Source: Myxococcota bacterium
GTDB lineage: Bacteria > Myxococcota_A > UBA796 > UBA2385
Length of the DNA stretch: 64,000 bases
NCBI GenBank assembly: GCA_044344255.1
Contig: JBIJDH010000009.1
Coordinates: 32,001-96,000, forward strand
Reading direction: 5' to 3'
Positions 12,325-53,229 of this stretch are shown here, piece after piece. A program made the position numbers and the translations under genes. The notes beneath the pieces are model-generated. The model did not search any database. It worked only from the letters and a program-made list of their open reading frames with translations, and was not told the DNA's origin. Numbering within the stretch: the first letter of the stretch is position 1; every line of letters starts with the position of its first letter.

Positions 12325-12327
12325 CCG

Positions 12328-14111: not shown

Positions 14112-14713
14112 GGCCCATGACCGAGTCCCCCGCGCTCGCGATGGTGGAGGTGGACTCGGTCGCCCGTGGGCTGCGCACCTTGGACGCCCTCGTCAAGAAG
14201 GCGCCGGTGCGGATCCTGGAGGCGAACCTCATCGAGCCGGGGCGCTTCCTGATCCTCTTCGCCGGCGGTGTCGGTGAGGTGGACGAGAGCTTCATCGAGG
14301 CCGTCGCCGTGGCGGCGGAGGAGCTCAGCGATCGACTCTTCCTGGCCGACGCGCACCCCGCGATCCTCCGCGGGCTTCGCGGATACCTCGATCTCCGGGG
14401 CGCAGACGACATGGACTGCCTCGCCGTGATCGAGGGGAGCCGAGTCGCCTCGACGCTTCGGGCGGTCGAGCGCTCGCTGAAGGAGGCCGATGTCAGCCTC
14501 GCCGGCCTCCGGGTGAGCGGAGGCCTCGGCGGGCGTGCCTACTACGTGGTCTTCGGGGCCCAGCATGACGTCGAGGCGGCGATCGAAGCCGGCAAGGCGA
14601 TCCTCGAAGAGGCGAGACAGCTGAAGAAGGTCGAGATCATCCCCCGCCCGCACCCCGAGATGGTGACGTGGCTGCTGCGTCCGCCGCCCTTCGCGGTGGC
14701 TCGGGAGGGCTGA
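14108..14713 (+). CDS. BMC-T single-layer shell trimer (PduT-like)
   Basis: ALAMVEVDSVARG...DALVKKAPV...PGRFLI...GLGGRAY...IIPRPH tandem BMC domains; start may be ATG 14117. Confidence 0.9.
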   Translation: MRPMTESPALAMVEVDSVARGLRTLDALVKKAPVRILEANLIEPGRFLILFAGGVGEVDESFIEAVAVAAEELSDRLFLADAHPAILRGLRGYLDLRGADDMDCLAVIEGSRVASTLRAVERSLKEADVSLAGLRVSGGLGGRAYYVVFGAQHDVEAAIEAGKAILEEARQLKKVEIIPRPHPEMVTWLLRPPPFAVAREG

Positions 14714-14991
14714 TGGAGCTGGCGAGAGTGCTGGGCCGCGTGGTCTGCACGGTGAAGTACGAGACGCTCACGGGCGTGCGCATGCTGGTCATCCAGCCCG
14801 TGGACGCCGCGGGGGCCGCTCAGGGCGAGCCGATCGTGGCGACCGATCCCCTCCAGGCGGGGCCGGGTGACCTCGTCTCCTGGGTGGGCGGCCGCGAGGC
14901 GGCGCTGACCCTGCCCAACACCTACGCTCCGGTGGACGCCTCGATCGTCGAGATCGTCGATCATGCGTGGTCGGACCGGAAGTACCTGTGA
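14713..14991 (+). CDS. BMC-P pentamer protein (second)
   Basis: MELARVLGRVVCTVK...DPLQAGPGDLV...PVDASIVEIVD; ATG overlaps upstream TGA. Confidence 0.92.
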   Translation: MELARVLGRVVCTVKYETLTGVRMLVIQPVDAAGAAQGEPIVATDPLQAGPGDLVSWVGGREAALTLPNTYAPVDASIVEIVDHAWSDRKYL

Positions 14992-15007
14992 ACCCCGGGA
15001 GGTCCCC

Positions 15008-15319
15008 GTGATCCTCTGTCGAGTCGTCGGCAACAGCGTCGCGACGGTGCGGCACCCCTGCTACGTCGGGCGGAGCGTGATGGTCGTCCGGCCCGTCCAG
15101 CCTGACGGCCACACGATCGCAGGCGACGAGTTCCTCGCCGTCGACGCCGTGCAGGCCGGCCCCGGAGACCTCATCCTCGCCTCGCGGGAGGGCAACACCG
15201 CCCGGCAGCTGCTCGGCACCGACAACGACCCCTTCCACGCCGTCATCCTCGGCGTGGTGGACGAGGTGAGCGACGAGACCCGCGGGATGCGGGGCACCCT
15301 CGGCGGGGGCGCGCCTTGA
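15008..15319 (+). CDS. BMC-P pentamer protein (third)
   Basis: GTG after GGAGG; ILCRVVGNSVAT...DAVQAGPGDLIL...EGNTAR...ILGVVD. Confidence 0.92.
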   Translation: MILCRVVGNSVATVRHPCYVGRSVMVVRPVQPDGHTIAGDEFLAVDAVQAGPGDLILASREGNTARQLLGTDNDPFHAVILGVVDEVSDETRGMRGTLGGGAP

Positions 15320-16098
15320 GCCTGCCCATCGACGAAGAGCAGCTTCGGACCGAGATCGTCGCCCGCTCCCACCAGCTCTCTGCCCGCGGCTGGGTGGCGA
15401 ACCACGACGGCAACCTCACCGCCCGGCTCGGCGGCGGGCGCACCCTGGCAACCCCCACCGCCGTGAACAAGGGCGACGTGCGGCCGGAGTGGCTGATCGT
15501 GCTCGACGAGTCGGGCAAGGTGATCTCCGGCACCCGCAAGCCCTTCGGCGAGCTGGTGCTGCACCGCGCGGCCTACGCGGCGCGGCCTGACATCGGCGTC
15601 GTCTTGCACGCGCACCCGCCGCACGCGACGGCCTTCGCCCTCGCCGGGCAGCCGATCGGCCACCCCTTCCTCGCCGAGGCGGTGGTGAGCCTCGGCCCTG
15701 AGCTGCCGCAGATCCCCTACCGGCGCCCCGGCAGCGAAGAGACCAGCCGCGAGCTGGCGGCCGCCCTCCAGCGCGCCGACGTCGTGATCCTCGAGGGGCA
15801 CGGGCTGCTCAGCGTCGGCGGCAGCTTCGAGCAGGCCTTCCTCCGGATGGAGCTGGTGGAGCACCTCGCCCGCTTGAGCTGGCTCGCCCGCCCCCTCGGC
15901 GGCGCCCGCCCCCTGCCCGAGGCCGACGTCCGCGCGCTCGCCGAGAAGGGCCGCCCCGCCTCCGCTCCCGACTGGAGCGGCGGCGCCCACGGCCCGGCCA
16001 GCAGCCCCTCGCTCGCTGCGGGCGCGCCGCCGCCCAGCCCGGCTCACCGGCCCGACGTGCGCTCCCTGGTCGAAGAGGCGATGCGCCGGGCGCGCTGA
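15316..16098 (+). CDS. Class II aldolase/adducin family protein (FucA-like) with C-terminal encapsulation peptide
   Basis: DGNLTAR, TPT, GELVLH, HAHPPHATAFA, LEGHG metal ligands; Pro/Ser linker then PDVRSLVEEAMRR. Confidence 0.92.
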   Translation: MSLPIDEEQLRTEIVARSHQLSARGWVANHDGNLTARLGGGRTLATPTAVNKGDVRPEWLIVLDESGKVISGTRKPFGELVLHRAAYAARPDIGVVLHAHPPHATAFALAGQPIGHPFLAEAVVSLGPELPQIPYRRPGSEETSRELAAALQRADVVILEGHGLLSVGGSFEQAFLRMELVEHLARLSWLARPLGGARPLPEADVRALAEKGRPASAPDWSGGAHGPASSPSLAAGAPPPSPAHRPDVRSLVEEAMRRAR

Positions 16099-18950: not shown

Positions 18951-21542
18951 TCAGCGGGCGTCACGGCAGAGCCGGATCCCGAGGGAGTCCCGACGCCGAT
19001 TGGCGGGCTGCTCCCACCGGTTGGCGAGCTGACAGTCGCTGGCGCTGTAGATCCAGGTGCCGCCGCGCTGGGTCCGCCGATCGTCGGGTCCAGCGACCCT
19101 CCGCTCGGCGCGGCCGTCCCCGCCCACCGCCGGCCCCTCCGGACGGAAGGGGTCCAGGCACCAGTCGCTTGTGTTGCCCGCCATCCCGCGGAGCCCGAAG
19201 GGGCCCTCATCCGTCGGGAAGTCCGTGACGCTCACCAAGGTGGGGCGGCCTCGGTGGGAGGCCCGCATCGCGCAGAAGGAGGGGTCAAGGGTGCGCCCCC
19301 AAGGGTACGCCCTCCCGTCCGCGCCGCGGGCCGCGCGCTCCCACTCGAGCTCGTGGGGGAGGCGCCAGCGACCGACCTGGCCGGCGGCGAAGGCCATCGC
19401 GTCGAACCAGTCCACCATCACGACCGGCCAGTCCGGCTGCCAGAGGTCTCCGTCGCTGTCGGGCTGCAGGAAGTAGCGTCCGCTGGGGGTGCGACCGTAG
19501 ATTATCGAAGCCTCGGTCTGATCATTCGTCACATATCGAGGCGCGTGTCGCTGAGCCCGGTCCCCCTCTCCGGCCGAGACAAGGGCATTCAGCCACTCGA
19601 TGTAGTCAAGATTCGTAACCGGGAATCGCCTGAACACCATCGCATCTACCCACACCCTCTGCAGAGGCTGGGCGGCCTTCACGACCGGATCGGCGCTCCC
19701 CGCGAGGGACCAACCGGCCGGTACGTAGCGGTCGCGCGGATCCCAGCCCTCCGCCGGCGGAAGCCAGATCGGCGCAGGCTCCCGGCCCCCTGGTGGCCGA
19801 CCGTCCATGTGCTCCGTGCGCCCGATGCGGACGGGATACCCGACGGGGATCCTCCCCGGAGCACGGAGGAGGAGGTGGTAAGACCCCATCGGGAGGGGCA
19901 CAGAGATGAGCGGCGTGTGCCCGAGCCGGCGGAGCGGGCGGGTGACGAGGCGCCGATCCACCTCCTCGTAGACCTCCAGCCAGACCTCGGCTCCCGGCGG
20001 GTCGGTGAGCAGGGTGAGGGCCCCTCCACCGTCGATCCAGCGGGCGTGCGTGCCGTCGTCGTGGCGCCGCAGCCGCGCCAGGGCCTCGGCCACCGCCGAG
20101 CGGTCGCCGCGGGCCTCGGCCTCCTCGTGGCGCGCGCGGTAGTGGGCGGCGAGCGCGGCGTGGGCCTCCGAATGTTCCGGATCTCGCTCCAAGGCCGCGT
20201 ACAGCGCCTCGCGCCAGGCCGCCTCTGCGGTCCGCGCCTCGTCTTCGAGTGCGGCGGCGCGATCCTCCAGGGTCCAAGCCCTTCGTCGCTCCGGCCCGCC
20301 GGCCTCCGGCCGCCCCTCCCAGATCGCGGCGGCCTCCGAGCGAAGCCCGCAGGCGGCAGCGCGGAGGGACTCGGCGCGGGCCCGCTCGCCCTCCGCCTGA
20401 CAGACGAGGACCTTCGCCTGCTCTCGACGGCGGGCGCCCGCGAGCCAGGCCGTGAGGCCAGTGACGAGGAGGCCGGCGTGCGGCAGTCGCTCGCTGGGCG
20501 CTTCGATCATCGCGGCCTCGACCAGCTCGGCCAGCTCCGCCGGCCAACGAGAGTCATCGGCGCCGATCCGCCCCCGCAGCACCTCGGCCAGGATGCAGCC
20601 GAGGGCGAAGACGTCAGAGGGGGGGCCGATCAGATCAATCGCACCCCGCCGCTGTTCAGGCGACATGTAGCCAGGAGATCCCACCACGTCGCCCATCCGG
20701 GTGCTGCCCTCCGGCGACGGCGCCGCGGCGGAAGCCGGGGCGAAGGCAGCCGGGAGATCGGTCGTGGGCAGGTCGGTCGTGGGCAGGTCGGTCGTGGGCA
20801 GGTCGGTCGTGACCGGCAGGCTCGATTCGAGGCGCTCCACCGCCGCCGGAGGTGCGCCCGTCTCCGCCCGAGGCGAGCCCAACCGGCGCCCGGCCGGGCC
20901 CACGACCCGCGAGATGCCCCAGTCCATCACCAACACCTCGCCGAACTCGCCGATCATGATGTTGGCCGGCTTGAGATCCCGGTGGATCACGCCGCGATCG
21001 TGCGCATAGGCGACTGCCTCACAGACCCGGAGCAGCACCTCGACGAGGCGCCGCAGCTCCACGGGATCCTCGCCCGACCCGACGCTCCGGCCGAGCGCCT
21101 CCTGCAGCGTCTGCCCGATGACCTCCTTCATCGTGAAGTAGGGCCGGCCGTCGGCGAGCACCCCGCGATCGTAGATCGGCACGATGCCGGGGTGCTGCAG
21201 GCCGGCGCAGATGCGCGCCTCGGCGAGGAAGCGCGCCAGGACGCCCGACCGCGGCGAGAGGTCAGCGCGCACCACCTTCATCGCCACGTCGCGGTCCAGC
21301 AGCCGGTCATGAACCCGAAGGACCTCGCCCATCCCGCCGATGCCAAGGCGCCCCTCGATCTGGTAGCGCCCCCCCTCAGGGGCACCCGCCCGCTCCCCAC
21401 CGATGGGCGACGGCGGCCGCAGCGGCGGCTCGGTCCGAGCGGGGGGCGCCAGCGGCGCGGCGCTGCGGCGCGACGGAGCGGCGGTGAACTTCGATCGTGG
21501 CCCCATCGGGCGGAGGGTAGGTCTCTTCCGAAGCCCGCGCAA
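18951..21542 (-). CDS. Ser/Thr kinase-PEGA-like-FGE-sulfatase (SUMF1) fusion
   Basis: LGIGGMGEV, HRDLKPAN, DWG, GSPGYMSPE; LTLLTDPPGAEV; FPVTN, RLPHELEWERAARG, GMAGNTSDW, RGGTW, LGIRLC. Start uncertain. Confidence 0.9.
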   Translation of the reverse strand: MRGLRKRPTLRPMGPRSKFTAAPSRRSAAPLAPPARTEPPLRPPSPIGGERAGAPEGGRYQIEGRLGIGGMGEVLRVHDRLLDRDVAMKVVRADLSPRSGVLARFLAEARICAGLQHPGIVPIYDRGVLADGRPYFTMKEVIGQTLQEALGRSVGSGEDPVELRRLVEVLLRVCEAVAYAHDRGVIHRDLKPANIMIGEFGEVLVMDWGISRVVGPAGRRLGSPRAETGAPPAAVERLESSLPVTTDLPTTDLPTTDLPTTDLPAAFAPASAAAPSPEGSTRMGDVVGSPGYMSPEQRRGAIDLIGPPSDVFALGCILAEVLRGRIGADDSRWPAELAELVEAAMIEAPSERLPHAGLLVTGLTAWLAGARRREQAKVLVCQAEGERARAESLRAAACGLRSEAAAIWEGRPEAGGPERRRAWTLEDRAAALEDEARTAEAAWREALYAALERDPEHSEAHAALAAHYRARHEEAEARGDRSAVAEALARLRRHDDGTHARWIDGGGALTLLTDPPGAEVWLEVYEEVDRRLVTRPLRRLGHTPLISVPLPMGSYHLLLRAPGRIPVGYPVRIGRTEHMDGRPPGGREPAPIWLPPAEGWDPRDRYVPAGWSLAGSADPVVKAAQPLQRVWVDAMVFRRFPVTNLDYIEWLNALVSAGEGDRAQRHAPRYVTNDQTEASIIYGRTPSGRYFLQPDSDGDLWQPDWPVVMVDWFDAMAFAAGQVGRWRLPHELEWERAARGADGRAYPWGRTLDPSFCAMRASHRGRPTLVSVTDFPTDEGPFGLRGMAGNTSDWCLDPFRPEGPAVGGDGRAERRVAGPDDRRTQRGGTWIYSASDCQLANRWEQPANRRRDSLGIRLCRDAR
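20751..20810 (-). repeat. 15-bp coding tandem repeat x4 encoding TTDLP
   Basis: Three exact GGGCAGGTCGGTCGT units plus one synonymous variant on + strand. Confidence 0.95.
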
Positions 21543-21556
21543 GGCTCAGCGCGCCT

Positions 21557-24532
21557 TCACCACGCGGCGCCGAGCACGCTCCGCAGGTCGCGACCCCACT
21601 CCACCTCGACCCGATCCCGCAGCGGCCCCGCCGCTGCCCTCAGCACCGCCATGTCCCAGCTCCGGAGGGTCCCGTCCCAGGAGCCCGAGAGGAGCGTGGC
21701 GCCGTCGGGCGAGAACTCGAGCGAATTGACCCGGCCGCTGTGGCCGATCAGGGTCGCGATGGCCTCGGGCTCCGCGAGGCTCCAGACGTGCAGGTCGCCG
21801 CTCAGGTGCCCCGACGCGAAGGTCTGACCGTCCACGCTCGCGGCCAGCTCATTGACGGGAGAGGTCACCGGCCAGGTCCGCGTCGTCTGTCCGTTCGGCC
21901 CGATGAGCTGGATCTGCACGCTGGTGCCGATCAGCGTCTGTGCGCCAACCGGGGCGACCGCCCGAGCCTCGGGGCGCGCACCCAGCCTCGTGGCCGTGGC
22001 CACCTCACCGTCTTCGATCCGCCAGACGACGTCCTCGGCGGCGATGGCGGCCGCCCGCGCGCCGGTGGGATCTCGCTCAAGGTCGGTCATGGACTCGGTC
22101 GCGAGCGTCAGGGGCTCCGCAGCGGCGCCGGGCCGGTCTCGAACCTGCATGAGGCGTGGATCATAGGAGGCGACGATCCAGCCCGCGCGCGGGAGCCCGA
22201 TCAGCCGGCGGACCTTCACGCCGGGGAGCTGGGCCTGCACCGCGCCGTCCCGGACGTCGTAGACGGGCTGGGAGTCCGTCGTGACCGTCCCGACGGCGAG
22301 CCGCTGCCCGTCGGACGAATAGGCGAGATCCTTCACCACCCCCGTCTGCGCCCGCCAGCTCTGCACCGTGGCGCCCGTGGCGCGAGACAAGACGTGCACC
22401 CAGCCGTCGCCGAGGCCCACCGCCACGTCGGCGCCGTCTGGAGAGATGGCGAGCGCGCCCACGCCCTCGGGGAAGCGGACCGACGCCGGCGCGGTGACGT
22501 CAGGGATGAGGCGATCTTCCGCGTGGTCCGACACGACGCGGAGGGTGTGATCGGCGGTCTGCCAGCGGAGGGGCCCGGGGGGACCGTGGATGCGGCCGAG
22601 CTCGGCGCCGTCTGCGAGGTTCCACACCACCACGAGGCCAGCGTCGGTCATCGCGGCGCCGCGAGTCTCGCTGATCTCCAAGCGGCGGATCGACTGCTCG
22701 GGGAGGCTGAGCGCCGGCGCCGATCCGTCGAGGGGGCGGATCTCACCGCGCAAGGTGCCCACCCAGAGCCGCCCATCCGGGCCCTCCGAGAGGCTCATCG
22801 GCGCCCCCTCCGACGGGGGGATCCGCCCGAGGAGGCGAGGCTCCGCGCCCACGCTCCCCTCACGGATCGCGCCATCGGAGCAGCCGATCACGAGGCTCCC
22901 CGACCGCCGGACGAAGACCGAGAGCCCCTTCTGGTCTTTGGCGCAGGTGTGATCGACGAGCACGGCGCCCGTCTGGATCTCCACGAGCGTCTCTCGTCCC
23001 GTCCCGAAGCCCACGAAGCGACCGGGGAAGGCCGAGTCTCCAATGCGTCGCGGAGCCAGGAAGGGCAACGCGATCCGCTCTGGCTCAGCCGGCGGCTCCC
23101 AGCGCCAGGCGGCTCGCTCCCGATCGAAGAGCACGATGCGACCCGCGCCATCGAAGCCCGCGGTGTCGAAGTCACCCGCCGCGAAGGCGCGCAGTTCGTC
23201 TGGCGCGAAGAGGTCACGGACCTCCACACCATCGGGCCGGAGGCAGAAATAAACAGTGGCATCGGGCGAAAGATCGCTGTTCGGGCAGCCCTCCAAGCGG
23301 GGGCCGCGCCGGAGCAGCCGGAAGTGCGGCAGGAGGGACTGTCGCGCGAGGATGCCGCGGGCGATCGGGCTCGGCCCGTGGACGATCGCGTTCGCGGCCA
23401 GGATCTCGGCCTCCATCTCCCGACCGGCCCGGGCGGCCGAGAGGGCCTGGGCGGCCAGCGCGGCCCCGAGCGAGCTCTCCGCCTCCGCCTGCGCGGCGAT
23501 GGCCAGCCCCTCGGAGCGACGGGCCCGGCCCTGCTCCGCCACCGAACGCGACCAGCCCCAGGACACCGCGAGCGCCAGCGCGACCGAGGCGACGGCGCCG
23601 ACGCTCAACGGGAGCCGGAAGGTGTGGGTGGCCCGCCGCAAGAGCTCACGCGTGGAGTAGGCGTAGGCCGCGACCCGGCGGCCCTCAAACCAGGCGCGCA
23701 GATCATCGGCGAAGGCCCGCGCCGAGGGGTACCGGTCTGCGAGCTCCGGCGCGAGGGCCCGGTGGGCGATGGCGGCCAGCTCGGGCGGCACCCCCGGCGC
23801 GACCTCTCGGAGCGGAGGCACCGGACCGACGGCGGGGGGGGCACGGCCCGAGAGCAGCGTGAAGAGCACGGCTCCGAGCCCATAGACGTCGGCTCGGGTG
23901 TCGATGGGGCCCGGTCGGCCCTGCTCCGGGCTCATGTAGCCCGGGGTGCCCGCGAGGCTGGCGCCGGCCGCCTCCTCGAGGGTGCAGGCCAGCCCCCAGT
24001 CCGCGACCACGGTCTCCCCTTCGGGGCCGACCATGATGTTGCTCGGCTTGATGTCCCGGTGGAGGACCCCGCGGGCGTGGGCGTGGGCGATGCCCTCCGC
24101 GGCCTCCAGCACATGCCGGACGAGCCGAAGCTGCTCGGGGCCGGAGGGTGAGGTGGCGATGGAGTCGGCCAGGGAGCGACCGGGGAGCCGCCGCATCGCG
24201 TACCAAGGCCGCCCGGACTCGTCGAAGCCCGCGGCGTAGACCGGCACGATGTTGGGGTGCTCGAGCCGGGCCGTGAGCGCCGCCTCTCGGGTGAGGCGCT
24301 GCGCCGCTCGCGGATCGCCGGGGTGGGCGGTCTTGAGCGCCACATCCCGGCCGAGGCGTCGATCATGGGCGACCCGCACCTCGCCCATGCCGCCGCGGCC
24401 GAGCAGCCCCCCCACCTCGAAGGTGGGCCCTGGAGCCCCCTCCGGCGACGGGGTCTCGCCGGTGAAGCCCGCGCCGCTCAACGGAGGCGGCGTGGAGCCG
24501 AAGCTGCCGCTGCGGAGGGATCGCCGGCTCAC
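21557..24532 (-). CDS. Ser/Thr kinase with TM segment and WD40 repeats
   Basis: LGRGGMGEV, HRDIKPSN, DWG, GTPGYMSPE; TM; GHSGRVNSLEFSPDGATLLSGSWDGTLRSWD. Confidence 0.92.
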   Translation of the reverse strand: MSRRSLRSGSFGSTPPPLSGAGFTGETPSPEGAPGPTFEVGGLLGRGGMGEVRVAHDRRLGRDVALKTAHPGDPRAAQRLTREAALTARLEHPNIVPVYAAGFDESGRPWYAMRRLPGRSLADSIATSPSGPEQLRLVRHVLEAAEGIAHAHARGVLHRDIKPSNIMVGPEGETVVADWGLACTLEEAAGASLAGTPGYMSPEQGRPGPIDTRADVYGLGAVLFTLLSGRAPPAVGPVPPLREVAPGVPPELAAIAHRALAPELADRYPSARAFADDLRAWFEGRRVAAYAYSTRELLRRATHTFRLPLSVGAVASVALALAVSWGWSRSVAEQGRARRSEGLAIAAQAEAESSLGAALAAQALSAARAGREMEAEILAANAIVHGPSPIARGILARQSLLPHFRLLRRGPRLEGCPNSDLSPDATVYFCLRPDGVEVRDLFAPDELRAFAAGDFDTAGFDGAGRIVLFDRERAAWRWEPPAEPERIALPFLAPRRIGDSAFPGRFVGFGTGRETLVEIQTGAVLVDHTCAKDQKGLSVFVRRSGSLVIGCSDGAIREGSVGAEPRLLGRIPPSEGAPMSLSEGPDGRLWVGTLRGEIRPLDGSAPALSLPEQSIRRLEISETRGAAMTDAGLVVVWNLADGAELGRIHGPPGPLRWQTADHTLRVVSDHAEDRLIPDVTAPASVRFPEGVGALAISPDGADVAVGLGDGWVHVLSRATGATVQSWRAQTGVVKDLAYSSDGQRLAVGTVTTDSQPVYDVRDGAVQAQLPGVKVRRLIGLPRAGWIVASYDPRLMQVRDRPGAAAEPLTLATESMTDLERDPTGARAAAIAAEDVVWRIEDGEVATATRLGARPEARAVAPVGAQTLIGTSVQIQLIGPNGQTTRTWPVTSPVNELAASVDGQTFASGHLSGDLHVWSLAEPEAIATLIGHSGRVNSLEFSPDGATLLSGSWDGTLRSWDMAVLRAAAGPLRDRVEVEWGRDLRSVLGAAW

Positions 24533-39289: not shown

Positions 39290-41785
39290 TCAGGGGAGGG
39301 GACGGAGCAGCCGGAAGCCCACGATGTCCTGCGGGTGCTCCGGGCGGGCGGCCTGCGGCCAGGCCAATCGGATGTTGGCCTCGTAGTAACCCGCCGTGCC
39401 CCCCCGAATCCACCGGGTCGGGCCGTCACTCTCCCGTGGCCGTACGAGGGGATCGGCCTCGGGGCGCAGCTCGGCCCCCATCCTCACCGGCCCGTCCAAG
39501 CACCAGTCCGCCACGTTGCCCGCCATGCCGAGGACCCCATATGGGCCGACGTCATCGGGGGTCTCGTCGACCGTCGCGATGGCGGTGCCGGCCGCCAAGG
39601 AGAAGCGGCTGCGACACCAGGTCGCGTCAAAGCGGTCTCCCCAGGGGAAGATGCGGCCATCCACCCCACGAGCTGCCTTCTCCCACTCAAACTGCCCCGG
39701 GAGGCGCCATGATTGGCCCGTCTCGGCGGATCTCCATCGGGCATACGCCATCGCCCCCCACCAATCGAGGCGCATGACGGGCCAGTCGGGCTGCCAGAGG
39801 TCGCCCTGGTCGTCCCGCCGGAGGCAAAAGTCTCCCGCTTCGGTTCGCCCGTACGCCAAGATCTTGCGGTCCGCCTCGCCAGCTTGCGGATGCTGGGCCC
39901 CCACAAGGTTCAGGCCGGTCTGGACGAGGCCGGGAGCGGCCCGCAGGGCCTCCGCCTCCCGACCTTGCGCGATCAGGTCGTTCAAGAAGCGGATGAACTC
40001 ACGGTTTGTGACCGGCCGGGCGTCGATGGCGAAGCTGTCGACCCACAGACGCTGCCGGGGAGAGGGGCTCGGCGCGCGCGCATCTCCAGCGACGAACCAC
40101 CCAGCCGGGACGTAGCGCTCTTCGGGGCCGAGCGCCTCGGGCTCGAGCAGGCGGAGCGGGCGAGCCTCCGCTTCCCCTGGGCGGAGGTTCTGCCACTCCT
40201 CTCGACGGCCGATCAGGACGGGCAGCTCGACGATGGGCCGATCAGGGTGGCGGACGCGCAGGAGGTAGGAGCCCATCGGGAGGCGGGCCCGGAGGACCGG
40301 GCTTCGGCCGAGCGAGATCGGTTCCCTTGGTTCGAGGCGGTGTTGCACCTCGATGAACCGATAGGCGACGACCTCCGCCCCAGGAGGCTCTGTATCGAGA
40401 GACAGCCACCCGCCTCCGTCTATGTACTCCGTATACCGTCCATCATCGTGGAGTCGGAGCTGGAGGAGCGCCGCCCGAGCGGGGCCCTCCTCTTCCGCCA
40501 TCTCCGCCGCCGCGTGAACCGCATGGTAATGCGCGGCGAGGCGGGCGTGGGCTTCGGGTAGCTCGGGGTCTTCGGTGAGCGCGCCGTGAAGGAATTGAAG
40601 CCACTCGCCAAAGCCACCCCGACCGCGCGCCTCCGCCACCTCCGCCTCCGCTTCGAGGGTCCAGCCAGGCTGCTTCTCCGTGACCGGCGCGTGGCGTGGC
40701 ACGCCTGCGAGGAGCGCTCGAGCGCGGGACCGAAGCGTCTGGGCCTCCGCCTCCCAGGCGGACCACTCCGGCTGCAGGCGATCGGCCTCGGCGACGAGGG
40801 CCCGGGCTCGCTCCGTCCGGCGCGCCCCGTCCAACCAGGCCTTCACCCCCTCCGCGAGCAAGCCCGCCTCTGGCGGTCGACTGACCGGATCCCGATCCAT
40901 CGCGAACTGGCAGAGCTCTACGAGCTCCGCCGGGAGGCGGCCCACCGGGAGGGGCGGCGGCGGGCCCATCCTCAGACGGTTGAGCACCTCCATCGCGCTG
41001 TCTCCACCGTACGGAGGGCGACCGCTGAGGATGTGGTACAGGATCGAGCCCAGGGCGTATACATCCGCGGGCGGGCCCACCTCCGGCTCCCCCCACGCTT
41101 GCTCCGGCGACATGTAGGACGGAGTGCCGGAGATGGCGCCGGCGAGGGTCTCGAAGGCCCGCTCATCCTGGCGGCTGCTCGACAGCGCCCCGACCGAGCC
41201 GTCACCCTGGAGGCGGGCGATGCCCCAGTCGAGGACGTAGACTCGGCCAAAGGTGCCGAGCATGATGTTGTCCGGCTTGAGATCCCGATGGACGAGGCCG
41301 CGGGCGTGGCAGTACGCCATCGTCTCGCAGATGCGATGAAAGATGTCGATGAGGCCTCGCAGACCGCGCTGCTCCCGGATCGCCTCCGAGAGCGTCCGCC
41401 CCTCCACCTCGGCCATCGTGAAGCACCAGCGCCCGTCGGCGCGGAGCCCGAGGTCAAATATCGGGACCACACCCGGGTGGTTGAGCTGGGCGACCAGCTG
41501 GGCCTCCTCGACGAAGCGGGCGATCGCCCGAGCGTCGGGCTGTCGATCGACCCGCAGGACCTTCATCGCGACCACTCGACGCAGCACCCGATCGCGCGCC
41601 CGAAAGACCTCCCCCATCCCACCGGCGCCGAGCAAGCCGAGCTGCTCGTACCGCCCTCCGTCGATCGAGGGCGCACCGAGGACGGATCCCCCCGCGGCCG
41701 CAAACCAGCCGCTGGAGCCCACTTCGCCCGTGGTGACACATTCACGGACCGTTCCACGTTCGTCGAGCGTCGCTTCATGCTCCAA
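39290..41785 (-). CDS. Ser/Thr kinase-PEGA-like-FGE-sulfatase fusion (paralog of 18951..21542)
   Basis: LGAGGMGEV, HRDLKPDN, DWG, GTPSYMSPE; LDTEPPGAEV; PVTN, RLPGQFEWEKAARG, GMAGNVADW, VGFRL. Start uncertain (ORF open to 41944). Confidence 0.88.
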   Translation of the reverse strand: MEHEATLDERGTVRECVTTGEVGSSGWFAAAGGSVLGAPSIDGGRYEQLGLLGAGGMGEVFRARDRVLRRVVAMKVLRVDRQPDARAIARFVEEAQLVAQLNHPGVVPIFDLGLRADGRWCFTMAEVEGRTLSEAIREQRGLRGLIDIFHRICETMAYCHARGLVHRDLKPDNIMLGTFGRVYVLDWGIARLQGDGSVGALSSSRQDERAFETLAGAISGTPSYMSPEQAWGEPEVGPPADVYALGSILYHILSGRPPYGGDSAMEVLNRLRMGPPPPLPVGRLPAELVELCQFAMDRDPVSRPPEAGLLAEGVKAWLDGARRTERARALVAEADRLQPEWSAWEAEAQTLRSRARALLAGVPRHAPVTEKQPGWTLEAEAEVAEARGRGGFGEWLQFLHGALTEDPELPEAHARLAAHYHAVHAAAEMAEEEGPARAALLQLRLHDDGRYTEYIDGGGWLSLDTEPPGAEVVAYRFIEVQHRLEPREPISLGRSPVLRARLPMGSYLLRVRHPDRPIVELPVLIGRREEWQNLRPGEAEARPLRLLEPEALGPEERYVPAGWFVAGDARAPSPSPRQRLWVDSFAIDARPVTNREFIRFLNDLIAQGREAEALRAAPGLVQTGLNLVGAQHPQAGEADRKILAYGRTEAGDFCLRRDDQGDLWQPDWPVMRLDWWGAMAYARWRSAETGQSWRLPGQFEWEKAARGVDGRIFPWGDRFDATWCRSRFSLAAGTAIATVDETPDDVGPYGVLGMAGNVADWCLDGPVRMGAELRPEADPLVRPRESDGPTRWIRGGTAGYYEANIRLAWPQAARPEHPQDIVGFRLLRPLP

Positions 41786-41849
41786 CGTAAGTGGCGGATC
41801 GACTGTGTCCTTCGATGCTCCCACCTTCGCGACTCCCGCGGCGACCGCA

Positions 41850-42947
41850 CTACATTCCCTCGACGGCGACCCCATCGAACCATGCCGTCCCAGACACCGC
41901 CGAGAGCACGCCCACCTGCAGGAAGGCTGCGTTGGCTGGAGCACGGACGTCGATCTCGATCAGCTCCCACGCGTGGGTGGAGAGTCGACCCGCCTTATAC
42001 GTCGGCTTCCCGATCGACATGCCCTCGCTGTCGAAGAAGGCCACGGAGAGCCGGGCCGAGTCTTCACGCTGACGGAACTCGACACGGAGATCTTCCGCTT
42101 TGAAGTGCGCTCGGACCTTTAGGTTCGCGTTGGGCTGAACGACGATCCGCTGGGTCAGCTCATGGAAGAGCCGGGTCTTGGAATTCGCGAAGAAGCGCAC
42201 CGAGGCTTGACCGTCGAGGAAGGTCCGCCCATCGAGGGAGACCTCCGCCACCGGGCTGTCCGCGCCGAGCGAGAGCGGGTTGTCGAGCTTCCAGGCGCCG
42301 CCGATGGTGCCCTCCGTCTCAAAGGACCCGTCCACCAGTACAACCGAATTCGCGTTGGAGTCTTTGGAGGGTCGGGCTCCGCCGAAGAATCGCGCCAGAG
42401 CGTCGCGGCTGCGCTCGTCTCGGTCGGGCGTCGAGGGCCAAGCGAGCTCGGTCTGATTCTTGAAGGACTTCTTTCGCTTCTTCGCCGTGACCTCCACGCG
42501 GATGACACGAGCCTCGAGGGGGCCGATGCGCACCGCCTCCAGCCAGTCCTCTTCGAAGCCGAACTGGACGGCCAGCGCCTCGGCGGCCTCCCGCTCCCGC
42601 TTGCTGAAGTCGCCGGTGGAGCGGATCACCGTCTCTCCGCGCCGCAAGCGGCCGAGCTCGGGGGCCGGCAGCGTATTGATGTAGTCGATGACCTTGTTGT
42701 ACTCCGGACTCAGCAACTGCTCGACGATGCTCGGGAAGGACATCGCGACCACAAAGAGGGCCGCTTCATCGAGCTCACGGGTGGCGAGCAGGAGGTTCAG
42801 CCGCGCCACCGGATCCGAGTCGGACATGGCCGTGACCCGAGAGGCCCGAGCCCGCGCGGCATCGTCGACGATCGGCGGCTTTCCCGACTGGGCGATGGCC
42901 TCCATCGGCGCGAGCGCGAGCAGCAGGGCGAAGACCAGCCGAACCAT
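41850..42947 (-). CDS. Secreted protein with C-terminal galactose-binding-like (CBM4/9-like) domain
   Basis: Signal peptide AIA; LVDGSFE...DGQASVR...QRIVV...WELIEIDVRAPANA...GTAWFDGVAV. Confidence 0.65.
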   Translation of the reverse strand: MVRLVFALLLALAPMEAIAQSGKPPIVDDAARARASRVTAMSDSDPVARLNLLLATRELDEAALFVVAMSFPSIVEQLLSPEYNKVIDYINTLPAPELGRLRRGETVIRSTGDFSKREREAAEALAVQFGFEEDWLEAVRIGPLEARVIRVEVTAKKRKKSFKNQTELAWPSTPDRDERSRDALARFFGGARPSKDSNANSVVLVDGSFETEGTIGGAWKLDNPLSLGADSPVAEVSLDGRTFLDGQASVRFFANSKTRLFHELTQRIVVQPNANLKVRAHFKAEDLRVEFRQREDSARLSVAFFDSEGMSIGKPTYKAGRLSTHAWELIEIDVRAPANAAFLQVGVLSAVSGTAWFDGVAVEGM

Positions 42948-42961: not shown

Positions 42962-43660
42962 CTACTCGACGAGACGGAGATGCCCGCGGTTTGGACCCTT
43001 GGGCGCCGGCTTGACGGGCGGTGGCGGCGGGGTGGGGTCAGGGGCGAGCGGGATGAGCGAGATCTGCTTGAAGGCGTCCCACGGCAGAAGCACGGTGTGC
43101 AGGCCGTCATCGAAGGAGAGGGTGACCTGGAGCCCCTCGTCCAGATACTCCGGGCTGTTGTGGGTGTGGTAGGCGGCGTCCAGCTTGATCGGCATATTCG
43201 CAGGGAACTTGGCCAACACTTCGCGAGGGACTCCGCTCTCCTTCAAGCGGTGGGAGTCAAAGACCAGGAAGAGGTCACAGCCGAGCCCGAAGCCGAGCCG
43301 CATGGCTTGCTCGGCGTGGTTGCCGAAGGGATCGACCGTCATCGGCCCTTCGTCTTCCTCAACGAGGTTGGTGGCGAGGCCGCTCGCCCTCCTCAACACC
43401 ACAGGGGCCGGGGGTTGTTCCTCTTCCTCGGGCGGCATGGCGCCGATGCCCCCCATGTCGGCCGGGCTGATCTCAAGGGCCTGCGAGAGCTGGATGAGCT
43501 CATCGACGGTCAAGGGTTCTGCTCCGCCCAGCACCAGCTTGAGCCGAGATCGCTCGATCGACGCCGCCTTCGCGAGGGCCGCAGTGTTCAAGCCCTTCTT
43601 CTGGGCGATGTCGCGGATGAGGTTGATCAGCGGAGTGGAGGGACGGGAGGGCGACGCCAT
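42962..43660 (-). CDS. XRE-type HTH fused to SspB-like ClpXP adaptor domain
   Basis: KGLNTAALAKAASIERSRLKLVLGG...LTVDELIQLSQALEISP; DEGLQVTLSF...VLLPWDA; Pro linker; HLRLVE terminus. Confidence 0.7.
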   Translation of the reverse strand: MASPSRPSTPLINLIRDIAQKKGLNTAALAKAASIERSRLKLVLGGAEPLTVDELIQLSQALEISPADMGGIGAMPPEEEEQPPAPVVLRRASGLATNLVEEDEGPMTVDPFGNHAEQAMRLGFGLGCDLFLVFDSHRLKESGVPREVLAKFPANMPIKLDAAYHTHNSPEYLDEGLQVTLSFDDGLHTVLLPWDAFKQISLIPLAPDPTPPPPPVKPAPKGPNRGHLRLVE

Positions 43661-43700: not shown

Positions 43701-44411
43701 CTACTTCGTCGGCGGGTGCTTGTGCGAGGGGAGCGCCTTCGGCGGCTTCACAGATCCGGGCGCCCCGCCGTTGATGTCCACCTTGGAGGCCTTGTAGGTC
43801 TGGGTGGAGCTGCTCTCGACCTTGGTGCTCACACCGGACTGAAAGACCGCCGTCTGTTTCCCTTCGATCGCCACAGTAAGGTCGGTCTCCAGCTTGAAGT
43901 CCTTGCACTTCAGCGAGATCGTCTCCTTGGCTTCAATGATGATGTGCTTCTCGGACTTCGTCGTGACGATCTTCTGAGCACTGTCAAAGGTGTGCCAGAT
44001 GGGACCGGAGGTCACGTCGAGGCGGGTCCCGGCCTTGGCCGCGAAGCCGACCTGCTCTGCGCCGCTCGTATCGTCGAAGATCACCATGTGATCATTACGA
44101 GACCAGAACACTCGCTTGTTGTTCTCCGAGTCGTCGTTCTTGTAGGGCTCAGGCTTGTCGGCGTCTCCGTTGTAGACGGCGCCGACCACGTAGGCGCTCA
44201 TCGAGCGGTAGGCGTAGGAGAGCACAACCTCTGTGCCGACGTCCGGGAGGATGACCAGCCCACGCTGCAGACCTCCCATCGGGCTCATCACCCGACACCA
44301 TGAGCTGTGGAGCGGCTCCCCGCTCTCCACAGGGAACTTCACCTTGACCCGATTCATCTTGTCCGGGTCCTTGTTATCGATGACGATGCCGACGATGAGG
44401 CCGTTGATCAA
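43701..44411 (-). CDS. Phage baseplate spike gpV/gp5-like protein (OB fold + beta-helix) with HxH-containing tail
   Basis: GIVIDNKDPDKMNRVKVKFP, SSWCRV, LPDVGTEV, VVGAVYN, IFDDTSGAE, KVDIN + 22-aa tail. Confidence 0.85.
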   Translation of the reverse strand: MINGLIVGIVIDNKDPDKMNRVKVKFPVESGEPLHSSWCRVMSPMGGLQRGLVILPDVGTEVVLSYAYRSMSAYVVGAVYNGDADKPEPYKNDDSENNKRVFWSRNDHMVIFDDTSGAEQVGFAAKAGTRLDVTSGPIWHTFDSAQKIVTTKSEKHIIIEAKETISLKCKDFKLETDLTVAIEGKQTAVFQSGVSTKVESSSTQTYKASKVDINGGAPGSVKPPKALPSHKHPPTK

Positions 44412-44435
44412 GGGGCACCCGGACTGGTGGGAGGA

Positions 44436-45092
44436 TCAGTTGATGGTGGTCATCGACGCGGTGAGCGTGAGGCTGCTACCGCCGTCCACCGTACAGCTCG
44501 TGCCCGTCTTGATCTCGGTGCTTGTTCCCGACTTGGCGCTCACGGACTGGCTCGCCTCCAGGATGAAGTCCTTACACTTGAGCGAGATGGTCTCCTTCGC
44601 CTCAACGATGATGTCCTTGCCAGAGTAGAGCGAGAGGGTCTTCTCGATTGCGTCCCAGATGATGCGAATCTCCTCGTTGTGGAGGACCATCTCGACGCGC
44701 TCGCTGCCGGAGGTGTCATCAAACGTGACGCGGTGACCCGAGCGGGATTGGAAGACCCGAAGGTTGTTGTCACCGTCTTCGTTCGCGTAGGGCGGAGTGT
44801 CCACTCCATTGTACAAGGAGCCCACGACGATGGCGTTGTGGATGTCTCCGTGCACGAAGGCGACGAGGACCTCGTCTCCGATCTCCGGGATCGTCATCCA
44901 GCCTCGCTCCTTCCCCGCCATCGGCATCACCAGCCGCGCCCAGTCGCTCTCGGGTGTCTCCGGCAGGGAGACGAACTTGACCTTTACGCGGCCGAGCTGC
45001 TGGGGGTCTTTGTTGTCCACCACGAGCGCTTCCACGAGGCCGGGCATCTGACCGGCGACGGGCCGGCCGTCGCGGTTGGTGACATTGGGCAC
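44436..45092 (-). CDS. Phage baseplate spike gpV/gp5-like (VgrG C-terminal-like) protein
   Basis: GTG after GGAGG; VVDNKDPQQLGRVKVKF, SDWAR, IPEIGDEVLVAFVHGD, VGSLYNG, SRSGHRVTFDDTSG, ends TTIN. Confidence 0.9.
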   Translation of the reverse strand: MPNVTNRDGRPVAGQMPGLVEALVVDNKDPQQLGRVKVKFVSLPETPESDWARLVMPMAGKERGWMTIPEIGDEVLVAFVHGDIHNAIVVGSLYNGVDTPPYANEDGDNNLRVFQSRSGHRVTFDDTSGSERVEMVLHNEEIRIIWDAIEKTLSLYSGKDIIVEAKETISLKCKDFILEASQSVSAKSGTSTEIKTGTSCTVDGGSSLTLTASMTTIN

Positions 45093-45123
45093 AGGAACCT
45101 CCACTCCGTTCGGAGTTCGCAAG

Positions 45124-45153
45124 AGTATACCGGCCCGAGGGTGGCCGGGTCAA
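45124..45153 (-). promoter_or_regulatory. sigma70-type promoter of spike gene pair, with inverted repeat in spacer
   Basis: Minus strand TTGACC-N18-TATACT; CCGGCC-N7-GGCCGG spans the spacer. Confidence 0.65.
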
Positions 45154-48618: not shown

Positions 48619-51600
48619 GTGGTGTCTCGTCGCTACCGGCGGGTGGGCTCGAGTCCGCGCCCATCGATACATATGCCCGTGGTGGCCCAGGACCGAGTGT
48701 TGGGCGGGATGGTGGTGCTCAAGATGGCCCCCTCCCGCGGCGCAGAGGCTGCGGAGCTCAGCCGCGAGGGTGGGCAGCTCGCCTCGCTCGCGCACCCGCG
48801 CCTCATCCAGCTGATCGATCGCTTCGAGGAGCAGGAGGGGGCCGGTGAGGACGGGCCGGTCACCGGCTTCGCGAGCCGGTGGGTGGACGGACAGACTCTG
48901 GTGGAGGGGCTGGCGGGAACAGGCCTCGGAGAGCGACTCTCCGCCTTCGGTCAGCTGCTGGACGTCGTGGCCTACCTGCACCGGCGTCGCTGCCTACACC
49001 TCGACCTGAAGCCCGACAACATTTTGCTCTCCTCCGAGGGCGTCACGCTGCTCGACCTCGGCTCGGCGCGCCCCCTCGACAGCGGGCCTGGAGAGGCCGG
49101 CGGCACCCTCGGCTACGCCTCTCCGGAGGTGCTGCTGGGACAGGCCGCCTCGGTGGCAGCGGACATCTTCAGCCTCGGCGCCATCCTCTACGAGCTCCTC
49201 ACCGATCGGCGCGCCTTCCTGGACGACCAGGGGGGTGACCTGCGTCGAGCCGTCCTGGCGGGAGAGTTCTTCCCCCCACGCACCCTCCAGCCCAGCATCC
49301 CGCTCGGCCTGGCCCACCTCGTCGAGGGCCTGCTCGCACCAGAACCCGCGCGCCGACCCGCCAGCGTGCTGGAGGTGGTGGAGCGGCTCCACCGCTTGGG
49401 TCACCCCGTCGTCCTCCAAGGGGGCTCTCCCCCGCTCGTCGGGAGGGCAGCGGAGATCGTCACGCTGAACGAGCGGCTCAACGCGCGAGAGGGCGGCGTC
49501 CTCCGGGTGGTCGGCGAGCCTGGAGTCGGGCGGGGCCGGCTGATTCGCCACGCGCTCTCCCACCACGTCGGCCCCTCCGCGCGGCGCTGCATCGATCTCA
49601 GCCAAGCCGCTGACCCGCTGCGGGCGATCGATGGGCTCTGCTGGACCGTCGGCGCCAACCTGCCGCCGCCGATCGGCTGCACGGCCTGGCAGAGCCTCGC
49701 GGAGCGGTCGCTGCGAGGCGGCGCGCTGCCGCCCATCGCCGCCTTCATGGGACACCGGGAGTCCACGCCCGTTGACCAGCTCCGGGTGATCGACGCCCTG
49801 ACACCGGCCCTCGTCCATGCCGGCGCGCTGGTGATCTGGGCCAGCGCAGCGGCGGACCCCGACCGCCCGTCGCTGCACCTGCCGCCCCTCAACCGGGAGA
49901 GCGTCGCGGAGCTGTCGCGGTTCTACTCGGTCGTCTCGGGGTCGCAGGTCGGGGAGCTGTTGGAGCGGACCGGCGGGATCCCGGGTGCGCTGCTCCGCCT
50001 CCTCTCCCCGACCGCCCACGCCGCCGATGCCCGGGAGCCCTCGAGCCAAGAAGGTGCGCTCGACTGGATCGTCCGCCTCCCGCCAGGCCTACCGGCGCCC
50101 CTGGTCTCGGCCATGCCGGGGCCGATGCGGGAGGGCGTACAGCGACTCCTGGACCGCGGAGCGCTGCGGCTGGCACATGACGGCCGACTGTATGTCGACG
50201 GTCCTCCGATCGCGCTGGCCCCGGACGACGCCGTCGAACGGCAGCTCCGAGAGCTCCTGCTCGCCGCGGATCCCTCCGGCGATCCGCTCTGGTTCGGCGT
50301 CGCGGCGGCCCGATTGGGTCTCTTCGACCTCGCCGCCGCGCTCTACGACCGTGGCGCCGAGCTCGCCGCGCCCCGCAGGTCCACGCTGCTCGAGCTGACG
50401 GAGCGCCTCGCCGCCTCGGGCCATCGCGCGGCCGTGTCCCCGCTGGCCCGGATGAGAGAAGAGGACGGCGGCCTGAGCGCGGCCATCACCTTGCTCCATC
50501 GACTCGAAGACCGCAGCGAGGCGGAGGAGATCGCGCTCATCCGCGTGCTCCGCCGCGCGAAGCGGGGAGGGGAGGCGGAGGCCCTGGCCCGCGCCGCCGT
50601 TCAGCGGACCGCCCGGGCCGAGCTCTGGATCGAGGTGGCGGAGTGCTGCGTGCTCCGCGGCGATGTCGCCGAGGCCTCCTTCGCCGTGTCCGAAGCCGAA
50701 GCGCTCGGACCGCCGGCCCCAGAGCTGCCGTTGCTGTCGATTCGACTGTCCATCCTCTTGATCCGGGTGAACAGCGGACAGCGGCCCGAAGAGATCGACG
50801 CGCTCCTCCGCAAGGTCGAGTCGCTGGCCACCGAGCTCCCCTCCGTGAGCCTCTCCACCGCGAGCCGGATCTGCGACCGGAGCGGGCAGCTCCAGCGCGC
50901 CGCCGGCCTGATGGAGCTCGCCGTCCGTCGCGCCGACGCCGAGGGGGACGCGAAGCGGGCCGCTGGCTACCGAAACAATCACGGCAACACCTTGCAGAGG
51001 CTGGGCCAGGGCGCGCGGGCCCGCGCGGCCTACGCCGACGCCGAGACCCGCGCCGAGCACCTCGGCGCTGAAGACCTCATCCTGCCGATTCGATACTCGA
51101 TCGCGGACCTCGAGCTGCGCTCGAACCACCTCCCCGCCGCGCAGATCGCCGTCGACAGCTTTCAAACTCGAGCGAACGTGGCGAAGTCTCCGGAGGCCCG
51201 CCTCCGGGCGGCCGAGCTCCGCGGTCGCCTCTTATTGGCGCAAGGCCACCCTGAGGAGGCCCTCACGGCCTTCAGCACGATGGACAGCGCCCGCCTCTCC
51301 GAAGACCTGCGGGTGTCGCGGGCGGTGGGGATGGCGAAGGCGCTGTTGGCCCTCCAGCGCTTCGAGGATGTGCAGAGCGTCCTCGAGGGGGTGAGCGGCT
51401 CCCGGGTGTCCACCGTTCAGGCGCTCGTGCAGACGCTACAAGCCCGCTCCTGGCTCGGCCTCGCTCGGCGCACCTTGGAGGCCGCCCGCCGCGCCGTCCC
51501 CGAGGCCCCCGACTCGATGGAGAAGCCCGACATGGGCGAGGTCTTGCTCGCGGCCGCCGGCGAAGACCTCGACGCCTCTACCTTCGCCGCGCGCCGCGCC

Positions 51601-53229
51601 GATCTCGGGCGCGCCGCGGTCCTCCTCCGGGGGACGACCCGCGCCGCCTCCGCCGCGACCCTCCGCGATCGGCTGCTGGAGGGCCCGGGCGCCAATCTGG
51701 AGGGCATCGTGACCCTCACCGAGGCCATGAACGATCCCCAGGCCTTCCCCTCGGCGCTCGCCCGCATCGTCGGCGAGGCCCTCGGCGCCTACCGTGTGCT
51801 CATCATGGTCCGCATCCCTGGCCTTGGGAACCAGATGAAGTACAATGAACTGTCCGGTCAGGAGGCCGCAGGGATCGGACGAGAGGTGCTGAAGCGGATC
51901 CAGAAGCCCAACGACACTTGGCTCGCCCACGATGCATTTGGGGACATCGAGCTCCGCAGAAGCTCACAGACGGTGCGCACCTTCGAGCTCAAGAGCCTGC
52001 TCGCCGTGGCGATCCCCCAAGGAGAGGCCTCGATCGGCGCGCTGTACGTGGACGATCTTCATCGGACCAACCGCTTCACCGACGCCGACGTACTGCTCAT
52101 GCGGCGCCTCGCCGCGGCGGTCGGCAAGGTCATCCCGCTGCTCAACCTGCGCCCCGCCGAGCCCGGCGCCGGCCGGCCCGTCGAGGTCTGCGGCGCCTTA
52201 TTCGGGAGCGCGCGCCAGGCCGAGTCGATGAGCGACGTCATCAACCTGATCGAGGGATCCTCCCAGTCGAACGTGCTGATCAGCGGCCCCACCGGCGCCG
52301 GCAAGACCGAGCTGGCCCGTCGGCTCGCCACGCAGGTGCTCGGCAAGAAGGGGGTCAAGCACGTCGTGCTCTTCGACAACGACGCCGAGAAGCTGAAGAC
52401 CCTCCTGGCCGGAACCCGTCCCGGCGAATTCTCGGGGTCGCTCCAGCGCGTGGGGGCGATCGAGCAGTGCCTGGCCTCGGGACAGGCACTCTTCCTCGAC
52501 GAGCTCCAGAACCTCGGCGACGCCGGACAACAGGTGCTGCTCCCCCTGCTGGAGCTGCCGAATCGACACTTCAGCGGCCTGTCCACCGCCTCCGAGCGCT
52601 TGAGCGGACCGCTCCAGGTCATCCTCGGGACCAACGCCGACGTCTCGAAGGGCCGGTGGAAGAAGGTCTTTCGAGAGGACCTCTGGTACCGCATGGGCCA
52701 GCACCACATCGCCCTGTCGCCGATCGCCGACCGTGGGGCCGAGGTGGTCTTTCAATATCTCGCCAAGATGCTCAAGGAGCTCTGTGGGCGGACCCCGGAG
52801 GACATCATCGAGACCCCGGCCCTGCACCGCGTCACCTCCTGGTCCTGGCCAGGGAACCTCCGTCAGCTCCGCAGCTTCGCCGAGACGGTGTCGCAACACT
52901 GGAAGCGACACCACAGCCCGATCACCCCCGAGCTGCTCCCTCGGCTCGGCATGCGCGACGACGAGTCCGAGGCAGAGACGGAGCGCGCCGACTCCATCCG
53001 CCTCGACCAGCACTCCATCCAGCACGTGATGCGGGTGCTCGAGTCTTGCGGGTGGACCCAGGTGAAGGCCGCGCGGCTGCTCGACATCAACCCTCCGCAC
53101 CTCAACAAGATGCTGGAGCGGGCCGGGCTGAAGGACTTCGTCAAGGAGCAACGCACCATCGCCCAACAGCAGCCCCGGGCGGCGAGCGCCGCAGTGGGCA
53201 CGGCCGCACCACGAAGGCCGGTGGGGTAG
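48619..53229 (+). CDS. Ser/Thr kinase-P-loop-TPR-GAF-sigma54-type AAA+ activator-Fis HTH multidomain regulator
   Basis: [31 protein letters not shown]-like helices; GAF ([15 protein letters not shown]); [42 protein letters not shown]. Confidence 0.88.

Follow-up and report, generated by a model that had tools for sequence, protein, structure and literature searches.

Two Tandem Spike Genes

The window (the whole stretch of 64,000 nucleotides analyzed in this study) carries on its reverse strand two tandem genes encoding spike proteins of contractile tails, referred to here as spike A and spike B. The pair and its surroundings comprise the following features.

45124..45153, reverse strand: sigma-70-like promoter site TTGACC-18-TATACT upstream of spike A (consensus match only)
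45098..45102, reverse strand: GGAGG, ribosome-binding-like, preceding the GTG at 45092 (from sequence)
44436..45092, reverse strand: spike A, 218 aa, GTG start at 45092; gp5 OB fold, beta-sheet domain, beta-helix, and blunt end IN
From ATG 45047, reverse strand: conserved core of spike A, 203 aa
44565..44603, reverse strand: EAKETISLKCKDF in spike A, at the start of the beta-helix (from sequence)
43701..44411, reverse strand: spike B, 236 aa from a TTG start codon; a paralog of A, distinguished by 8 inserted residues within the sheet domain and by a tail at the C terminus
43896..43934, reverse strand: EAKETISLKCKDF in spike B (from sequence)
43704..43769, reverse strand: tail of B, a fixed-length Pro-rich linker followed by P-x-(H)-x-H-x-P (from sequence and ortholog comparison)
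43716-43718, reverse strand: conserved His232 of spike B; His230 is variable
42962..43660, reverse strand: Cro/C1-like HTH protein with a weakly SspB-like C-terminal domain, downstream of B; candidate regulator
41850..42947, reverse strand: 365-aa protein with a signal-peptide-like start and a CBM_4_9-like C-terminal beta-sandwich

The gp5 OB fold (PF04717) was the sole Pfam match of A and of B, which are 42% identical over 212 residues, confirming an earlier sequence-only reading of this stretch that had recognized two tandem gp5/gpV-like genes. Both proteins start at the OB fold, with no gp27 domain fused in front. Both also contain EAKETISLKCKDF, encoded with 5 synonymous differences in 39 nt, and then run for exactly 42 residues to IN. 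Spike A ends there, and B continues for a further 22 residues, terminating in HKHPPTK; the earlier description of this shared stretch, of its synonymous differences, and of the extension confined to B was exact. The beta-helix of A ends flush and without an HxH motif, and among 73 full-length orthologs, 71 were likewise blunt, with no more than one extra residue. The exact 13-residue match between A and B represents the upper tail of a generally conserved stretch, with at least 13 residues shared in 5/70 within-genome pairs and 59/4830 between-genome pairs. The 42/42 match recurred in 39 of 62 scorable A/B pairs. Helix-end lengths of A and B were equal in 41/62, no more than one residue apart in 58/62, and two residues apart in four.

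A monomer model of B (pLDDT 72, pTM 0.46) showed the beta-helix and the tail without secondary structure, which would be expected for a single chain of an intertwined trimer, and the model may be taken to confirm the fold class only. GC content drops to ~0.63 across the spike pair. One sigma-70-like site was found upstream of A against 0.3 expected by shuffling. RNA-library contigs covered A and B at a depth of 2-7, similar to their neighbours and possibly including DNA carry-over.

Pfam scans of 41 window proteins identified no other tail genes, and together with family searches they bore out the earlier statement that the window holds no tube, sheath, hub, baseplate, or PAAR gene. Other gene groups in the window include a bacterial microcompartment cluster (11295-16095, forward strand) that encodes BMC shell proteins, three EutN/CcmL vertex proteins, an aldehyde dehydrogenase, and a class II aldolase, and that is of the sugar-derivative metabolosome type. 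A 1536-aa fusion protein (48619-53229, forward strand) combines a Ser/Thr kinase, an AAA/TPR region, a GAF domain, a sigma-54 activator, and a Fis HTH. Several kinase genes, two of which are fusions of a kinase with an FGE-sulfatase domain, are located at 18954-24532 and 39290-41944 (reverse strand) and are unlinked to the spikes in relatives.

A Spike-Less eCIS Locus in the Same Genome

The genome is 95% complete in 83 contigs, with the spike pair on contig C64. Genome-wide family searches revealed two contractile loci, on contigs C52 and C83, which carry the only hub genes of the genome; sheath, tube, PAAR, and DUF4280 genes are absent from the pair's contig and all lie on others.

C52:235382-259721: eCIS locus without spike and without PAAR (profile search)

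The C52 locus encodes an AAA ATPase, a DUF4157 protein, Pvc16, a sheath, a tube, a chaperone, a second sheath, and a second tube, followed by a 1509-aa protein, a LysM initiator, a 340-aa hub, gp25, baseplate J, a gpI-like protein (P2), and two more genes. Tube (PF06841) and sheath (PF04984/PF17482) families thus occur twice each, and the Afp7 LysM initiator (PF19266 and PF01476), Afp9 gp25 (PF04965), Afp11 baseplate J (PF04865), Afp15 AAA ATPase (PF00004), Afp16 terminator (PF14065), and DUF4157 (PF13699) are all present. For Afp8, the gp27 part is encoded on C52, and the gp5 part is found only as the C64 pair, besides the C83 system's own. Apart from the gp5 half of Afp8, the C52 locus has the complete eCIS core set as given in the available text of the survey of Chen et al. 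(2019, PMC6899500). The 340-aa hub aligns to residues ~60-350 of the AlgoCIS, Anabaena, Streptomyces, and Salmonella eCIS spikes, and A and B align to residues ~373-589 of the same four proteins, so that the C52 hub plus A or B gives end-to-end coverage of a fused eCIS spike.

The sequence-only reading had proposed that the pair serves an eCIS, T6SS, or tailocin encoded elsewhere, and had called for a search of the genome for sheath, tube, and hub loci lacking a spike. Such a locus is provided by the eCIS on C52, without spike or PAAR; the T6SS and the tailocin dropped out, and PF05943 (the VipB/TssC T6SS sheath) was not found in the 95%-complete genome. RNA-library contigs from two studies covered the C52 sheath, tube, and chaperone at a depth of 20-200 versus 0-6 upstream, and a DNA run over the same region was flat at a depth of 22-33, a hint that the C52 system is transcribed, given that contig depths cannot rank genes. 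The particle may be released from the cell or could be membrane-associated as in SalCIS.

No tail-fibre gene was recognized at the C52 eCIS. The 1509-aa protein (C52:246496-251025), located between the second tube and the LysM initiator, is Ala/Arg-rich and of no known family; it is conserved in parts in relatives (31-51%) and is a possible tape-measure, anchor, or cargo protein. The locus ends (C52:258741-259721; L012:10742-11722) with two conserved genes that relatives also keep. One has a sub-threshold match to YukD (ubiquitin-like), and the other encodes a 311-aa protein that belongs to no known family.

The second contractile system (C83:32366-49193; L013, L014) has its own spike ahead of the sheath. 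Upstream of it lies a gene for a 1333-aa candidate effector with weak PMT_C2/HopBA1/Tiki-like matches, and downstream a gene for a 2622-aa PKD-repeat protein.

The presence of this second locus in a 95%-complete, 83-contig genome, together with the GC dip to ~0.63, would allow the pair to serve the C83 system, a T6SS, or an unassembled prophage, or to be a decaying relic. We consider this very improbable and largely refuted: the C83 spike belongs to a separate clade, many relatives with the pair lack a C83-type hub, no VipB was identified, and the reading frames of A and B are intact with low pN/pS.

Distribution of the Pair in Relatives

Sixty related genomes from seven families were sampled. 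The tandem pair was present in 41 of them, with an orthologous hub in 41/41 and on the same contig in 0/41. At all 30 best hub loci (30/30), the gap between hub and gp25 is 15-256 nt, and no spike or PAAR gene lies between the two (30/30); wider stretches of the C52-type locus in six relatives likewise contained neither spike nor PAAR. Relatives without a C52-type hub (G028, G044, G052, and G056) gave no match to B. A search with the B profile collected 77 loci, overlapping the 60 relatives and all from metagenome bins with mixed labels; where myxobacterial labels were given, they read Myxococcota or Deltaproteobacteria. A and B occur together in 75 of these loci, and sheath, tube, hub, gp25, J, and LysM genes were found beside the pair in none (0/77). 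The pair is intact across six families, which answers in the affirmative the earlier call to check its conservation, and there is no cultured member among the named relatives.

Nine relatives carry the hub without the tandem pair. In two of them (G034 and G054), the matches lie apart or B is missing, and five other hub-only relatives comprise four that also lack the HTH gene and one with the HTH gene at a contig start. These cases fit assembly gaps, which is not proof. Many contigs (loci L148-L193) break within a Gly-rich extension of B, which is probably the reason that the locus is missing from some bins.

Family f4 has a C52-type hub and a single blunt spike that lies off the locus in 6/6 loci and adjoins the same HTH gene in 4/6; in the closed genome G084, the spike is 3.1 Mb from the hub. 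Two spike genes are therefore not always needed by the system. In family f12 of the sister order, a tandem blunt pair heads an eCIS operon of the same type directly before the sheath in 5/5 loci fetched, these being five loci among 11 genomes with matches. The earlier description of the pair as an orphan thus holds in the order of the window's genome only, as the sister-order pair stands inside its operon. The f12 operons (L272-L276) have three tube genes after the first sheath, in addition to two blunt spikes. The surroundings of the f12 pairs yielded no PAAR gene, and a search of five genomes with the PAAR profile returned only two weak, distant matches. We conclude that the spike pair of the window very probably belongs to the C52 eCIS.

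Tip Genes and Neighbours of the Pair

The genome encodes two candidate tip proteins away from the pair, either of which could serve this spike.

C18:306756-307094: PF05488 PAAR gene, the only one in the genome, unlinked to the pair
C43:18118-18516: DUF4280 tip gene, unlinked to the pair

Among relatives, a PF05488-like or DUF4280 tip gene was identified in 38/41 genomes with the pair and stands beside it in 19/41. Of the 63 loci that include 2.5 kb of upstream sequence, 36 have a PAAR gene close to A; PAAR co-occurs with the pair, yet could serve A alone. Between PAAR and A, a SAM methyltransferase gene (e.g., L108:7460-8143) was present in 29/63 loci with room and 31/77 overall, and the enzyme might modify a tip protein. 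In the genome of the window, the PAAR gene lies ~10 kb from a homolog of this SAM methyltransferase and just before a radical-SAM-like gene (C18:295402-307094; L309). Seven His/Cys residues are invariant in the PAAR family (21 sequences), one ligand short of two four-ligand sites; speculatively, a variable Cys/His could give the eighth.

The genes downstream of B had been proposed as regulators or cargo, and they fared differently. Of the 39 loci that extend far enough downstream, 28 have the HTH gene after B; the HTH assignment stood, with the SspB match below the Pfam cut-off. The 365-aa protein was linked in only part of the loci (9/30) and is probably outside the spike module; its assignment, with a feature score of 0.92, is a lead only, and the single-sequence model was poor (pLDDT 48). 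The kinase-FGE gene and an upstream aminotransferase were rejected as parts of the module (0/30 loci).

The Tail of Spike B

Scorable B tails (n = 67) carried HxHxP in 54 cases, xxHxP in 11, and neither in two. The conserved His lies 18 or 19 residues past the helix end in 64 of the 65 motif-bearing tails, and a Pro four residues before it, outside the search pattern, is present in all 65. The linker is 29% Pro, and the His pair follows 15-17 residues of it. A polyproline chain of 17 residues spans ~50 A, similar to the height of the PAAR cone. More than half of the tails (39/67) run on for more than 40 residues, up to 640, mostly of low complexity, and four long extensions searched for effector domains gave no Pfam match. 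Among 131 more distant protein clusters, no B-type tail was found except in one B-type fragment.

These data bear on the idea of interchangeable tips, in which separate A3 homotrimers (PAAR-capped) and B3 homotrimers (with their own HxH metal apex) would sit on the same C52 hub and form two particle types, B3 displaying three long tails in many relatives. This arrangement matches two textbook spike classes, all matched solved spikes are listed as homotrimers or single sequences, and HxH is kept in 54/65 motif-bearing tails at a nearly fixed distance; we regard it as possible but doubtful. The first His is replaced in 11/65 tails from several lineages, where the Pro at -4, the second His, and the Pro at +2 persist. 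In phage P2, the HxH (His197/His199) sits only 6-8 residues into the apex (10.1101/2023.02.25.529910), unlike the long Pro-rich linker of B. The length of many extensions and the near-absence of the tail among distant relatives also speak against it. Moreover, B is kept where its tail has been lost (L181, L196, and L283) and both members of the f12 pairs are blunt, so the two genes are retained without two tips. The earlier proposal that the HKH tail forms a P2-like iron apex is accordingly weakened by the missing first His, the two tails without the motif, and the tail-less B proteins. With a dispensable His, a long Pro-rich spacer, and chains that continue beyond the motif, the tail appears a poor fit to a P2-type iron apex and rather resembles a linear motif used for docking to a partner.

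Divergence and Selection of A and B

In quick trees, which apply to all phylogenies reported here, A and B formed separate clades (SH-aLRT 95 and 100). Near-invariant sites specific to each paralog (e.g., D58/T60, A72/P73, and Q100/W103; 70 pairs) are located in the OB and sheet domains, and these different invariant residues indicate that A and B are not redundant. A duplication later than the split of f4 was considered and set aside, as A and B did not form a clade in the best trees, though this was not rejected (p-AU 0.22). Grouping of B with the second f12 spike, which bears on whether the f12 pair may have duplicated independently, was rejected on the full length (p-AU 0.01) and not on the OB and sheet domains (0.30).

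The beta-helix behaves differently. Similarity of A and B in this region was 0.442 within the same genome versus 0.374 across genomes (0 of 5000 permutations), and the within-genome excess was positive in 63/70 pairs, whose genomes are related and non-independent. The excess was 0.004 in the OB domain, 0.003 in the sheet domain, and at most 0.014 for the helix out of register. The signal persisted after thinning to 20 genomes, and A and B interleave in the helix-only tree. Such tracking may reflect the need of intertwined strands in one trimer to match, and episodic gene conversion would give an equal signal. Codon identity at identical residues was raised similarly, by 0.05-0.07, in all three regions, which speaks neither for nor against recent gene conversion as the origin of the helix match.

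Over 51 close, non-independent pairs, median pN/pS was 0.10 for A and 0.22 for B, indicating purifying selection on both genes. For distant pairs, corrected dN/dS had medians of 0.37 and 0.68 and maxima of 0.84 and 1.37; saturation in high-GC genes probably inflates these values, and close pairs were therefore used. A prophage relic, named earlier as a refuting outcome, is not supported, since the pair is conserved and both genes are under purifying selection.

A Proposed Mixed Spike

The sequence-only reading had left a heterotrimeric spike and interchangeable tips side by side, and the sequence evidence leans to the heterotrimer. We consider it somewhat probable that the pair supplies the C52 eCIS with a spike in the form of one PAAR-capped mixed trimer, likely A2B. 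In this model, A and B would attach through their OB folds to the gp27 hub trimer encoded on C52, the three beta-helix strands would wind around one another in register, and the flush ends at IN would offer PAAR a platform. From there, the tail of B would leave at the side, stretched out as polyproline of constant length, and its conserved His-x-Pro may contact the PAAR tip or a different protein of the particle, either by docking or through a shared metal ion. Many relatives have a long disordered extension beyond this point of the tail. On sheath contraction, the tube would drive the spike through the target envelope, as in other contractile systems. Two observations could be read otherwise: helix tracking would also fit two homotrimers that match the same cage or PAAR, and the paralog-specific sites would fit two different homotrimers equally well.

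The A2B ratio is the weakest step of this explanation. It is suggested because A evolves more slowly and is blunt, because one long tail would be easier to house than three, and because of the composition of one locus. In this locus (L146:1225-3719), three spike genes stand in a row, namely a blunt A, an A-clade copy with a B-like HxHPP tail, and B, which suggests that the tail of the middle gene was transferred by recombination. The same locus lends itself to a mixed trimer of another or variable composition, either AB2 or several ratios side by side. The His residues of two or three tails would then jointly form a metal site over the PAAR or next to it, two HxH motifs amounting to four ligands. 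This appears improbable to us. Only one of the 77 loci has the three-gene arrangement, a four-His site would not survive the loss of the first His that is found in 11/65 tails, and several long disordered extensions per tip would be harder to pack.

A stronger form of the A2B proposal is that an obligate, symmetry-broken heterotrimeric needle is standard for an eCIS found across this uncultured Myxococcota order and has arisen once or twice in the class, with the polyproline arm of one chain running along the PAAR cone, its conserved His completing a metal site there, and a single long disordered tail at the tip. We think this unlikely; if true, the mixed composition would set the register of the asymmetric PAAR and a one-per-particle attachment point. 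A one-per-particle tail, if true, would be a natural attachment point for cargo.

Comparison With Known Systems

The solved contractile-tail spikes matched here are homotrimers, and spikes are sorted into two exclusive classes, with either an HxH apex or a PAAR cap. The spike operon described in this study joins two genes that resemble one class each, frequently next to a PAAR gene, and it is conserved in six families. The best sequence and fold matches of A and B were AlgoCIS Alg8/Alg10 (7AEF) and Anabaena All3320 (7B5H), together with SalCIS SalCis8/SalCis10 (9RCE) and the Streptomyces CIS (9GTR). Alg8 and All3320 terminate in IN, as A does. According to the accessible text of the structural reports, AlgoCIS Alg8 and SalCIS SalCis8 are one-protein trimers, each capped by one PAAR-like protein (PMC8894135; PMC13266070). 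The AlgoCIS, Anabaena, SalCIS, and Streptomyces systems differ from the pair in having, inside the operon, a single gene for a homotrimeric spike in which gp27 and gp5 are fused.

Similar to the P2 gpV and phi92 spikes, B consists of a stand-alone OB fold and beta-helix with a C-terminal HxH. It differs from them in its 15-17 residue Pro-rich linker, in that only the second His is near-invariant, and in the co-occurrence of PAAR genes; spikes with a C-terminal HxH are described, in the portions available, as having their own iron apex without a tip protein, and others as carrying PAAR (10.1101/2023.02.25.529910; PMC12407873). "Heterotrimer" in the phiKZ and phi92 literature denotes wedges, as far as the available text goes (PMC13250141; PMC13450770).

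The VgrG system of Vibrio cholerae, as far as its accessible description goes, is a T6SS with fused gp27-gp5 and no tandem pair, and the heterotrimer is a proposal there too. Extensions of the V. cholerae VgrG paralogs are enzymatic. Mixed VgrG trimers were proposed for this organism, with a short blunt spike and extended paralogs forming homo- or heterotrimers, in the part of that work available (PMC3166118). Within Myxococcota, the CIS of Haliangiales has a truncated spike and a PAAR-like tip that are missed by standard profiles (10.1101/2024.12.19.629468); its available text describes a single spike among ten syntenic genes and no pair.

A split Afp8, with one gp27 ORF and one gp5 ORF, occurs in eCIS subtypes IIa-IIc, and 13 genomes have eCIS genes at two genomic places, termed "split loci", in the text available of the eCIS survey (Chen et al., 2019, PMC6899500). 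Like the split-Afp8 eCIS, the system studied here has gp27 and gp5 separated and all eight core components present; unlike them, as described in that text, its gp5 half consists of two conserved paralogs that have moved off alone, with B extended. According to the same text, C-terminal extensions are absent from all VgrG homologs of eCIS (PMC6899500), to which B is a counter-example. We found no description of a two-paralog eCIS spike in the open-access article texts searched. Locus-based surveys would score the C52 eCIS, which comes from a widespread, uncultured freshwater lineage, as lacking a spike, and the pair likely provides it. A split gp27/gp5 and split eCIS loci are known parts, and the conserved two-gene spike is the unusual one.
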